A stretch of DNA of 64,000 nt, taken from the NCBI RefSeq assembly GCF_017348835.2, contig NZ_CP071375.1, one strand, 5' to 3'. This document shows positions 2,330 through 46,938 of the stretch, in pieces. Both the position numbers and the translations under genes were made by a program. This stretch comes from Escherichia coli (GTDB taxonomy: Bacteria > Pseudomonadota > Gammaproteobacteria > Enterobacterales > Enterobacteriaceae). How positions within the stretch are numbered: position 1 is the stretch's first letter; the number at the start of each line of letters is the position of its first letter. The notes under the pieces are model-generated. The model worked only from the letters and a program-made list of their open reading frames with translations, was not told the DNA's origin and did not search any database.

Positions 2330-2435
2330 ACGGTTATAAATCAACATATTGATTTATAAGCATGGAAATCCCCTGAGTGAAACAACGAATTGCTGTGTGT
2401 AGTCTTTGCCCATCTCCCACGATGGGCTTTTTTTT
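2330..2435 (+). ncRNA. rprA: RprA small regulatory RNA (RpoS translational activator)
   Basis: ACGGTTATAAATCAACATATTGATTTATAAGCATGGAAATCCCCTGAGTGAAACAACGAATTGCTGTGTGTAGTCTTTGCCCATCTCCCACGATGGGCTTTTTTTT matches RprA as I recall it, ending in a hairpin plus T8 terminator. Confidence 0.85.
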
Positions 2436-2572
2436 AACATTTTTCCGCTTCGCTACCTCGCCCCTCACTCTTTCCAATAATGTTGCACAAGATACTGTGA
2501 CTCTCTTCAAGCCGTCAGCAAGCTGATAATGTTATTTATATTTTATTGTTTATTTCATGCAGCCATTACACG

Positions 2573-44290: not shown

Positions 44291-45094
44291 TTATGCTGGC
44301 AACGGCCCGTTTTGTATAGGGGCCGTTGCCTTACTTTTTAAATGTTCCATCGCGGCGATGCATACTGACTCATATTTAAACAGATCGTCAGCGAAAAAAA
44401 TGTCCAACTTATCAATACATTCCTGGCTCAATAAATGTGCCTGTAGCGAGAAGCTTAAAACCTCATACCCGAGACGTTTTCTAAGTGAAATATCTGAAAT
44501 ACTCATAATATCTTCAAGCACACCACTTCCCATTCCCGGAAGATTTAGTGGATTAAAAAGAAGATTGATATTAAGCATTGATATTATCGAAGGGAACTTC
44601 AGTAGATGCTCATTATTTTGAATCGCAGCAAAAATGCTCCCGGCAGGATGTATATAATTTTTTTCATAGTATATAGTCCTTAAATAATGAATAACCAACC
44701 TGTTTTTTATATTGATCAAATTGGTCATTTTTTCTGGGCGAAATACAGAAGTGACATCCATTCCAATAAAATCTTTATTTATACCTCTTATCCGAATTTC
44801 ACTACCATAAAGATTATTAATTATTACTTTATATTTAGCATTGTCCTGCAGATACGTATCAAAACTAAGTGCTGGCGCTCCTGGCTTTGAGGCATCAAAG
44901 TTAATGTTAGACATATAGGCAATCATATAATTAAAATTTGATTCTGCTATTTCATCGCAGTCACATTGACCCGTTGATATAAAGAAAGTGAGTGCTGTCA
45001 TAGTAGACTGCAGCCTTTCTTTAAAAGAGTCGAAAGCCAGGCTTTTAATATTTAAATCACCATAATTACTCTGTATTAAGTTTGTAGAAAACAT
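44291..45094 (-). CDS. ydjO: Uncharacterized AT-rich protein YdjO
   Basis: ORF track 44291..45106 (271 aa); probable start at the internal Met (MFSTNLIQ) preceded by SD-like AGGTGGGAG. Confidence 0.65.
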   Translation of the reverse strand: MFSTNLIQSNYGDLNIKSLAFDSFKERLQSTMTALTFFISTGQCDCDEIAESNFNYMIAYMSNINFDASKPGAPALSFDTYLQDNAKYKVIINNLYGSEIRIRGINKDFIGMDVTSVFRPEKMTNLINIKNRLVIHYLRTIYYEKNYIHPAGSIFAAIQNNEHLLKFPSIISMLNINLLFNPLNLPGMGSGVLEDIMSISDISLRKRLGYEVLSFSLQAHLLSQECIDKLDIFFADDLFKYESVCIAAMEHLKSKATAPIQNGPLPA

Positions 45095-45162
45095 CTCCCA
45101 CCTCATATTGAACCGCCCCGGAAATCCTGGAGACTAAACTCCCTGAGAAAGAGGTAAACAGG

Positions 45163-45489
45163 ATGACTAAAAATACTCGTTTTTCCCCCGAAGTCCGTCA
45201 GCGGGCGATTCGTATGGTTCTGGAAAGTCAGGATGAATATGACTCACAATGGGCGACAATTTGTTCCATTGCTCCAAAGATTGGCTGTACGCCGGAGACT
45301 CTGCGTGTCTGGGTTCGCCAGCATGAGCGGGATACCGGGGGCGGTGATGGCGGGCTCACCACCGCTGAACGTCAGCGTCTGAAAGAGCTGGAACGTGAAA
45401 ATCGTGAACTGCGCCGCAGTAACGATATCCTTCGCCAGGCTTCCGCTTATTTTGCGAAGGCGGAGTTCGACCGCCTCTGGAAAAAATGA
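45163..45489 (+). CDS. IS3-family transposase OrfA (HTH DNA-binding part)
   Basis: 108-aa [19 protein letters not shown]... with leucine-zipper-like C-terminus; recalled as IS629-type OrfA. Confidence 0.85.
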
Positions 45490-46376
45490 TGCCACTGCTG
45501 GATAAGCTGCGTGAGCAGTACGGGGTCGGACCGCTATGCAGCGAACTGCATATTGCCCCGTCAACGTATTACCATTGTCAGCAACAGCGACATCATCCGG
45601 ATAAACGCAGTGCCCGTGCGCAGCACGATGACTGGCTGAAGAAAGAGATACAGCGCGTATACGATGAAAATCACCAGGTATACGGTGTGCGTAAAGTCTG
45701 GCGTCAGTTGTTACGGGAAGGTATCAGAGTGGCCAGATGCACTGTGGCACGTCTCATGGCAGTTATGGGACTTGCCGGTGTTCTCCGGGGTAAAAAGGTC
45801 CGCACTACCGTCAGCCGGAAAGCCGTTGCCGCATGCGACCGCGTAAACCGTCAGTTCGTGGCAGAACGTCCAGACCAGTTGTGGGTGGCTGATTTTACCT
45901 GGGTAAGCACATGGCAGGGCTTCGTTTATGTGGCGTTCATCATTGATGTGTTCGCCGGATACATCGTGGGATGGCAGGTCTCATCATCCATGGAAACAAC
46001 ATTCGTGCTGGATGCACTGGAGCAGGCGTTGTGGGCCCGTCGGCCGTCCGGCACAATCCATCACAGTGATAAAGGTTCTCAGTATGTATCGCTGGCCTAC
46101 ACGCAGCGGCTTAAGGAAGCCGGATTACTGGCATCAACAGGGAGTACTGGCGACTCGTATGACAACGCGATGGCGGAGAGCATCAATGGTCTTTACAAAG
46201 CGGAGGTAATACACCGTAAGAGCTGGAAAAACCGGACAGAAGTGGAACTGGCCACACTCACGTGGGTGGACTGGTATAACAATCGACGATTGCTGGAAAG
46301 GCTGGGCCATACTCCCCCGGCAGAAGCAGAAAAAGCTTATTATGCTTCCATCGGAAACGATGATCTGGCAGCCTGA
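45486..46376 (+). CDS. IS3-family transposase OrfB (DDE catalytic part)
   Basis: 296-aa frame in -1 relative to orfA; integrase-core motifs; A6 run at 45481-45486 is a candidate slippery site. Confidence 0.85.
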
Positions 46377-46695
46377 GTTCACAGATAAAACACTCTCCAG
46401 GAAACCCGGGGCGGTTCATATTGTTAACAAAATTATTATCTCATTTAAATCTAAGTCATTTACAATATAAGTTTAAGAGCGACGCCACAGGATGAACTAT
46501 CAAAAATAGCTCATCATGATTAGCAAAACTTAACCATTTTAAAATAAATAAACAATTAAAGAAAAAAGATCACTTATTTATAGCAATAGATCGTCAAAGA
46601 CAGCTTTTTGTTACAGGTGGTTTGAATGAATGTAGCAATGAAATACAGAATTTCAGGCCATGTAACTCCCGGCAAAACCGGGAGGTACGTAATCT

Positions 46696-46938
46696 TTACT
46701 CAGTCACTTCCCCTTCCTGGCGGATCTGATTTGCCCAACGCTGGGCGGATTCAGGCACAGTAAACGCCGGTGAGCGCAGAAATGACTCTCCCATCAGTAC
46801 AAACGCAACATATTTGCCACGCAGCATCCAGACATCACGAAACGAATCCATCTTTATCGCATGTTCTGGCGGCGCGGGTTCCGTGCGTGGGACATAGCTA
46901 ATAATCTGGCGGTTTTGCTGGCGGAGCGGTTTCTTCAT
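46696..46938 (-). CDS. cedA: Cell-division modulator CedA
   Basis: 80-aa frame MKKPLRQQNRQIISY inside track ORF 46696..46959. Confidence 0.85.
   Translation of the reverse strand: MKKPLRQQNRQIISYVPRTEPAPPEHAIKMDSFRDVWMLRGKYVAFVLMGESFLRSPAFTVPESAQRWANQIRQEGEVTE

Follow-up and report, generated by a model that had tools for sequence, protein, structure and literature searches.

At which point in the overlap between orfA and orfB do ribosomes enter the -1 frame to make the fused OrfAB transposase of the insertion sequence carried by this stretch of Escherichia coli DNA (64,000 nt of contig NZ_CP071375.1, hereafter the window)? The sequence-only reading had placed the slip within 14 nt at the end of orfA (45477-45490), where a run of six adenines (A6) directly precedes the stop codon and was taken for the kind of slippery sequence that IS3-family elements use; from the intact site it concluded that the element is probably still able to transpose. 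Our analysis points to a different assignment. The flagged 14 nt very probably constitute the stop/start overlap of orfA and orfB, with OrfAB being made mainly by a -1 shift at a U_UUU motif further upstream, acting together with an apical-loop/internal-loop (ALIL) pseudoknot.

The element is a complete IS629-type insertion sequence of the IS3 family, 1,310 bp in length (45109..46418), and is bounded at both ends by inverted repeats; this and all features below lie on the + strand, except for the target-site duplication, which has no strand. The left terminal repeat (45109..45133) comprises 25 nt, TGAACCGCCCCGGAAATCCTGGAGA, and is 88% complementary to positions 46394-46418, where the 25-nt right repeat (…GGGGCGGTTCA) pairs with it. 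The repeats are imperfect (TGAACC…GGTTCA) and have the 5'-TG start and CA-3' end of IS3-family elements. A direct 3-bp duplication of the target, TAT, lies immediately outside them (45106..45108 on the left, 46419-46421 on the right; flanks …CATAT/TGAACC… and …GGTTCA/TATTGT…, the slash marking the boundary) and falls within the 3-4 bp typical of the family. IS629 itself is 1,310 bp long with 25-bp repeats. DNA comparison shows 99.0% identity, over 1310/1310 nt, to IS629 as annotated in phage BP-4795. A search with the element located 31,370 related copies, spread over 4,260 of the 5,426 complete E. coli genomes, and since an identity of at least 99% is reached by only 7 of the 7,016 matching E. 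coli records, the window copy is a slightly divergent isoform. The same insertion is present in E. coli PE164, between ydjO and cedA, at 99.9% identity, where PGAP labels it 'IS3 family transposase, programmed frameshift' and adds an 'AL1L pseudoknot' feature. Proteins 98% identical to those of the window carry the name 'IS3-like element IS1203 family transposase', and IS629 counts both IS1203 and IS3411 among its isoforms (PMC3271280). A promoter and terminator scan of the element returned nothing above chance.

The first of the two reading frames, orfA (45163..45489 in the open reading frame list), encodes a helix-turn-helix DNA-binding protein of 108 aa, which is identical at 103/108 residues to the 'IS629 orfA' structure (PDB: 2RN7), and ends TGG AAA AAA TGA. 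The second, orfB (45486..46376), encodes 296 aa from its first ATG and contains the DDE catalytic domain (NCBIfam NF033516, 311.8 bits), with the catalytic residues D136 (45891-45893), D195 (46068-46070) and E231 (46176-46178); in an alignment of OrfB relatives the two aspartates are invariant and the glutamate nearly so. Identical proteins bear Pfam PF01527, PF13276 and PF00665, and the combination of a DDE (rve) transposase and an N-terminal helix-turn-helix is the one expected of the IS3 family. These are two consecutive, overlapping frames, orfA starting in frame 1 and orfB in frame 0, a shift of -1. The OrfAB fusion scores 366.4 bits against NF033516 (cut-off 160) and covers profile positions 1-369, although the profile cannot discriminate between fusions made at different points in the overlap because the hinge is not modelled. 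The copy is intact, with full-length frames, DDE residues, ends and duplication in place, and is therefore plausibly mobile.

At the junction itself (45477..45490, CTGGAAAAAATGAT), the A6 run occupies 45481-45486, the orfA UGA 45487-45489 and the orfB AUG 45486-45488, so that stop and start share an AUGA overlap. The anatomy described by the sequence-only reading, with the orfA end, the A6 run and an orfB ATG at 45486 inside the motif and in the -1 frame, is thus confirmed by the sequence and its reading frames. Its identification of an IS3-family (IS629) element with a -1 frameshift fusion transposase also agrees with annotation, NF033516, 2RN7 and the BP-4795 match, and the completeness of frames, DDE residues, ends and duplication is in keeping with its expectation that the element is probably transposition-competent. 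The orfB frame is open further upstream, however, to 45423, and a productive -1 shift is therefore possible anywhere within 45423-45489, beyond the A run.

Runs of six adenines are common in this DNA: the window holds 121 on both strands (62 on the + strand) versus 90 +/- 14 in shuffled sequences, and from the + strand count the 67-nt overlap should contain about 0.06. The run alone therefore carries little statistical weight, and its position and frame are what matter. The orfA frame reads UGG AAA AAA UGA, or G_AAA_AAA, which is out of register for an X_XXZ_ZZN heptamer, and the sole formal slippery tetramer within the run is A_AAA (45483-45486). The only other in-frame tetramer of the overlap is U_UUU (45450-45453), which begins 31 nt upstream of the run.

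Were the A6 run the main slippery site, tRNA-Lys would slip back by one base just before the UGA and translation would go on from AUG 45486, to give a fusion reading …DRLWKK/MMPLL… (the slash marking the junction). This proposal, which we consider extremely unlikely, draws on the location of the run inside the orfA/orfB overlap, on the formal Z_ZZN match of A_AAA in the orfA frame, on the slow-to-decode stop codon that comes next and on the fact that A-rich heptamers are the commonest shift motifs of the IS3 family (PMC4066793). The run offers no such heptamer in frame, however, and reporter data for tetramers combined with a pseudoknot rank them A_AA.G >> U_UU.C > U_UU.U > C_CC.U = C_CC.C > A_AA.A (Sharma et al., 2014, PMC4066793). 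A_AA.A is thus the weakest of six active tetramers and one that needs a stimulator, tetramers without a stimulator being barely shifty in E. coli reporters (PMC4066793). The same ranking tempers the assignment that we prefer, since U_UU.U is only a mid-ranking tetramer.

The surroundings of the run contain little that could act as a stimulator. Neither folding nor alignment placed a stimulatory structure about 4-10 nt 3' of it. Positions 45491-45530, directly after the run, fold no better than shuffled sequences (z = +0.5), and a fold started after the run gives a weak predicted helix from 45498, 11 nt past its end (z = -1.8). A 15-nt inverted repeat (45486-45500 with 45582-45596), considered as a conserved helix near the run, is 48% paired, the same as its shuffled and slid controls.

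A very different picture emerges upstream. Positions 45444..45560 match the Rfam model of the ALIL pseudoknot frameshift element (RF01497) at 120.2 bits (E = 3e-32, gathering score 50), with all model positions, 1-117 of 117, aligned. The first positions of the model fall on CGCUUAUUUUGC, and the 5' end of the match contains the conserved slippery motif U_UUU_G ('T4G', TTTTG; 45450..45454), in which the orfA-frame codon UUU (45451-45453) is preceded by U at 45450, giving the slippery tetramer U_UUU (45450-45453). Exactly 5 nt separate this in-frame tetramer from stem-loop 1 of the pseudoknot (45459..45475, GGCGG-AGUUCGA-CCGCC), which is supported by the Rfam match, by folding and by alignment. 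Stem-loop 2 (45521..45560; Rfam structure line, fold z = -2.95) carries the internal loop UCGGAC (45526-45531), and this loop can form six pairs with the apical loop GUUCGA (45465-45470) of stem-loop 1. The 45-nt linker between the stem-loops holds the A run, the orfA stop and the orfB AUG. The A run accordingly lies 3' of stem-loop 1, with stem-loop 2 beginning 35 nt further downstream. Given the textbook footprint of the ribosome, one that has arrived at the A run would already have unwound stem-loop 1 and hence the pseudoknot, which is a further argument against the run as the main site. With a stimulator in place at U_UUU and none for A_AAA, the former should outperform the latter.

This arrangement is shared by distant relatives of the element. 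We gathered 80 loci from alpha-, beta- and gamma-proteobacteria in which the OrfB relatives are 57-66% identical to that of the window; these gave 58 distinct intact elements which, with the window copy, form a gap-free alignment of 59 sequences. An in-frame U_UUU (31 elements) or U_UUC (27 elements) stands exactly 5 nt before stem-loop 1, GGCGG-AGCUCGA-CCGCC in the relatives, in 58/58 of them. A few relatives extend the U motif to U_UUU_UUY. In several, no more than about 13 nt of open orfB frame precede the U motif, which is therefore the sole slippery motif common to all overlaps. A run of at least four A between stem-loop 1 and the orfA stop was found in 0/58 distant relatives, so that the run on which the sequence-only reading relied is missing from 58/58 elements in which the remainder of the signal is retained.

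The ALIL region is translated in both frames, so protein coding could account for some of its conservation, which weakens to that extent the case for the U_UUU site; what is informative is the set of compensatory changes together with the slid controls. Across the 59 sequences the Rfam structure together with the loop-loop helix is 94.5% paired, versus 31-48% in controls with slid 3' partners. Both members have changed in six pairs, and compensatory changes occur in both ALIL helices. The loop-loop helix stays paired throughout (59/59), and its single double change (C-G to U-A) is that of the window copy itself.

Conservation among close copies was followed in two sets. The first comprises 81 close copies (80 viral-contig loci and the E. 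coli PE164 copy), in which the T run is invariant (81/81) and the A run is polymorphic: A6 in 77, A5 in two, A7 in one and AAGAAA in one. The second, of about 117 IS629-clade copies, came from a search anchored on stem-loop 1 alone; here YTATTTTGC precedes stem-loop 1 in 116 copies, and orfA ends in A6 followed by TGA (86), A6 followed by TAA (21), A5G followed by TGA (8) or A5 (2). An A_AAR codon directly before the stop is therefore kept in about 115 of the 117, which counts to some degree against attributing the fusion to U_UUU and speaks for a model with two sites.

In such a two-site model U_UUU and the ALIL pseudoknot would provide the main fusion, and the A run a minor -1 product with a different 11-residue hinge that could modulate transposase stability or activity. 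Chen and Hu are said to have described, in 2006, two IS629 frameshift products, one from T4G and one from A4G at the orfA end, both functional and one of them stabilising the other. It is because of this reported A4G site that we regard the sequence-only interpretation as partly, rather than not at all, supported. A TGG AAA AAG TGA end is indeed present in one IS629 copy (L083), as in 8 of the roughly 117 clade copies. The window copy, however, has A_AAA and not A_AAG, and A_AA.G is far shiftier than A_AA.A in reporters (PMC4066793); no stimulator is positioned for the A run, and the clade is too shallow (at least 95% identity) for conservation of the A_AAR codon to mean much. We therefore judge the two-site model unlikely for this copy, if with some appreciable chance of being right.

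Public annotation falls largely on the side of the T run. The exact T-run fusion protein is on record at NCBI (WP_435367413.1) versus no NCBI record of the exact A-run fusion. Among annotated fusions with a readable junction, 122/125 join at the T run and 3/125 at the orfA stop, the homologues counted being all at least 97% identical and including no distant relatives; the three GenBank proteins joined on the orfA-stop side count in favour of the A6 run. Odd residues at some junctions (C or G; L) arise from joins drawn one base apart. We considered using public annotation as the decisive arbiter and rejected this, as its joins fall at three positions that differ slightly. Both the Rfam model and those joins at NCBI, moreover, probably stem from one literature and hence are not independent of it.

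The sequence-only reading had named a reference IS629 frameshift site at another position as grounds for refutation. The conserved site does lie elsewhere, at the T run with its ALIL pseudoknot, and on that count the assignment to the A6 run fails; the run is at most a secondary A_AAA shift site.

Two further roles for the run were weighed. The AUGA overlap could couple termination to initiation, with ribosomes that end orfA restarting at the AUG to make OrfB alone, aided by a leader that is rich in A, lacks structure and has a GGA upstream. The overlap is present in 34/59 aligned sequences, and 38/59 have an AUG at the corresponding position of the orfB frame; the A run sits in the unpaired linker between the stem-loops, and IS629 OrfB is reported to lower transposition (PMC5771124). 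On the other hand, 19/59 lack an AUG there, TGA is replaced by TAA in 21 of the roughly 117 IS629 copies, turning the first AUG into AUA, and a strong Shine-Dalgarno sequence is absent. We see coupling as a tentative possibility, on balance improbable.

Alternatively, the run could be a hotspot for slippage or indels, through RNA polymerase stuttering or replication slippage, in which the occasional gain of a seventh adenine fuses orfA to orfB and yields a constitutive transposase. One close copy with A7 (L006) does have an uninterrupted OrfAB of 404 aa, and two have A5 (L008 and L024). These are, however, single observations in draft assemblies and may be homopolymer sequencing errors, and loss of an adenine, as in A5, would inactivate a copy. 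In E. coli, besides, transcriptional slippage is efficient only on runs of at least about 9, and we regard the hotspot as very unlikely. A broader conjecture, that the A run gives the IS629 lineage a second site for recoding or switching, whether by a low-level A_AAA slip or by A6-to-A7 indels such as that of L006, is speculative and seems to us rather unlikely; if true, switching at the A run would tune transposition independently of the U_UUU/ALIL signal.

The anatomy, conservation, covariation and annotation described above are direct observations, and it is on conservation, position and annotation that we place the site at U_UUU; the slip itself and its efficiency we infer. In the proposed mechanism, a ribosome would decode UUU (Phe97, 45451-45453) as its entry channel meets stem-loop 1, 5 nt downstream (45459-45475), which the six loop-loop pairs with stem-loop 2 would lock into the ALIL pseudoknot. 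tRNA-Phe could then re-pair on the UUU at 45450-45452, after which the orfB frame would be read onward, giving a fusion coding sequence that we infer to be join(45163..45453, 45453..46376), with the predicted junction peptide QASAYFCEGGVR. Ribosomes that do not shift would stop at the UGA (45487-45489) and release OrfA. The A6 run is a lineage-specific feature of the linker and would contribute at most a minor -1 event on A_AAA, a restart of OrfB at the AUG, or both.

The underlying biology is already established for IS629 and IS3411, and the signal, T4G with the ALIL pseudoknot, is modelled in Rfam and in PGAP. The significance of the present result beyond annotation is accordingly small, and lies in drawing the fusion coding sequence with its join at the T run, not at the A run. 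IS629 is a driver of genome diversification among pathogenic E. coli. More generally, where an A run is found in an orfA/orfB overlap, its frame, its spacing to structure and its conservation should be checked before it is named as the shift site.

Among known systems the closest are IS629, IS1203 and IS3411, with which the window element shares the length of 1,310 bp, the imperfect 25-nt repeats, the 3-bp duplication and the arrangement of orfA and orfB in frames 0 and -1; some IS629 copies end orfA with AAA AAG TGA whereas the window copy ends it with AAA AAA TGA. The ALIL pseudoknot of IS3411 was reportedly described as a frameshift signal by Mazauric et al. in 2008. In IS3411 a stem lies close 3' of the shift site, and another stem-loop, 44-104 nt downstream, offers an internal loop with which the apical loop of the first pairs, an arrangement common to at least 27 other IS elements (Atkins et al., 2016, PMC5009743); the structure is reported to stimulate -1 frameshifting in vivo (PMC5009743). 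The window copy resembles this signal (RF01497) in its 5-nt spacing and in the pairing of apical and internal loops. Its loop-loop helix is formed by GUUCGA and UCGGAC, versus GCUCGA and UCGAGC in the wider ALIL family, from which it differs by a compensatory change of C-G to U-A and by a change of U-A to U-G.

IS3, IS911 and IS150 likewise make OrfAB by a -1 shift near the orfA end, using A_AAG or A_AAA_AAG together with a pseudoknot or stem-loop; it is this A-rich type of motif that the sequence-only reading had in view. These elements have their A-rich motif in the correct frame, followed by a structure 5-9 nt downstream, whereas the A run at the orfA end here is out of heptamer register, comes after stem-loop 1 and is followed at that distance by no conserved or significant structure that could serve as a stimulator. 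A parallel to the U_UUU site is offered by IS6110 of Mycobacterium tuberculosis, also of the IS3 family, in which a slippery motif directly precedes a hairpin with the loop GAGCUCGAC that forms part of a pseudoknot; a mutated IS6110 sequence printed in PMC5896891 begins cgcggccgagctcgaccggcc. The slippery motif of IS6110 is the heptamer U_UUA_AAG, in contrast to the U_UUU tetramer of the window element.

The IS629 copy (45109-46418) begins approximately 15 bp upstream of the start codon of ydjO (44291-45094, minus strand), within the ydjO-cedA intergenic region (45094-45109 and 46419-46700 in the window). Elsewhere in the window, gathering-level Rfam matches were obtained for the RprA sRNA (2330-2437, plus strand), the STnc540 sRNA (27114-27272, minus strand), the phenylalanine leader in the pheM region (31113-31237, minus strand) and the ES036 sRNA (56437-56479, plus strand), all of which are consistent with ordinary chromosomal DNA of E. 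coli. The identical IS629 insertion (locus L001), with 99.9% identity including the flanks, is carried by E. coli PE164, which was isolated from a pig. On the PE164 chromosome 32 places match the IS629 copy, and a recent expansion in the PE164 lineage is suggested.

Public annotation places the ribosomal slippage of this same element at three different join bases (NCBI proteins P0002, P0005, P0008, P0012, P0019 and others), giving a junction residue of C, G or L, and in a few entries the join falls not on the conserved slippery U_UUU (45450-45453) but on the stop codon of orfA. These differences are annotation inconsistency, not biology. The stop codon itself varies: in 21 of about 117 IS629-clade copies (about 18%; viral contigs, locus L164 onward, for example L003 and L009-L012) it is TAA rather than TGA. 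With the same change the first AUG of orfB becomes AUA and the second AUG alone remains, so that a restart at OrfB, if it occurs, cannot depend on the first AUG.

The A6 run preceding the orfA stop (45481-45486) also differs in length between copies. A single IS629 copy (L006; IMG/VR UViG_2534681674_000028) has A7, which brings orfA into frame with orfB to encode an uninterrupted 404-aa OrfAB (…DRLWKKMMPLL…), and two others (L008 and L024) have A5. These are either genuine homopolymer indel variants or sequencing errors; if real, the A7 form would give a constitutive transposase. The slippery U_UUU can pair with the first four A residues of the A-run, extending stem-loop 1 of the ALIL pseudoknot (45450-45463/45471-45484) with 14-nt arms that are 79% complementary. 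This putative extension would bury the slippery site in the free mRNA. The distant relatives have no A-run.

The loop-loop helix of the pseudoknot (45465-45470/45526-45531) reads GUUCGA/UCGGAC in the IS629 lineage versus GCUCGA/UCGAGC in the distant relatives, a difference from all 58 of these elements that comprises one compensatory change, C-G to U-A, and one change from U-A to U-G. This is a clean natural covariation, and it supports the ALIL pairing.
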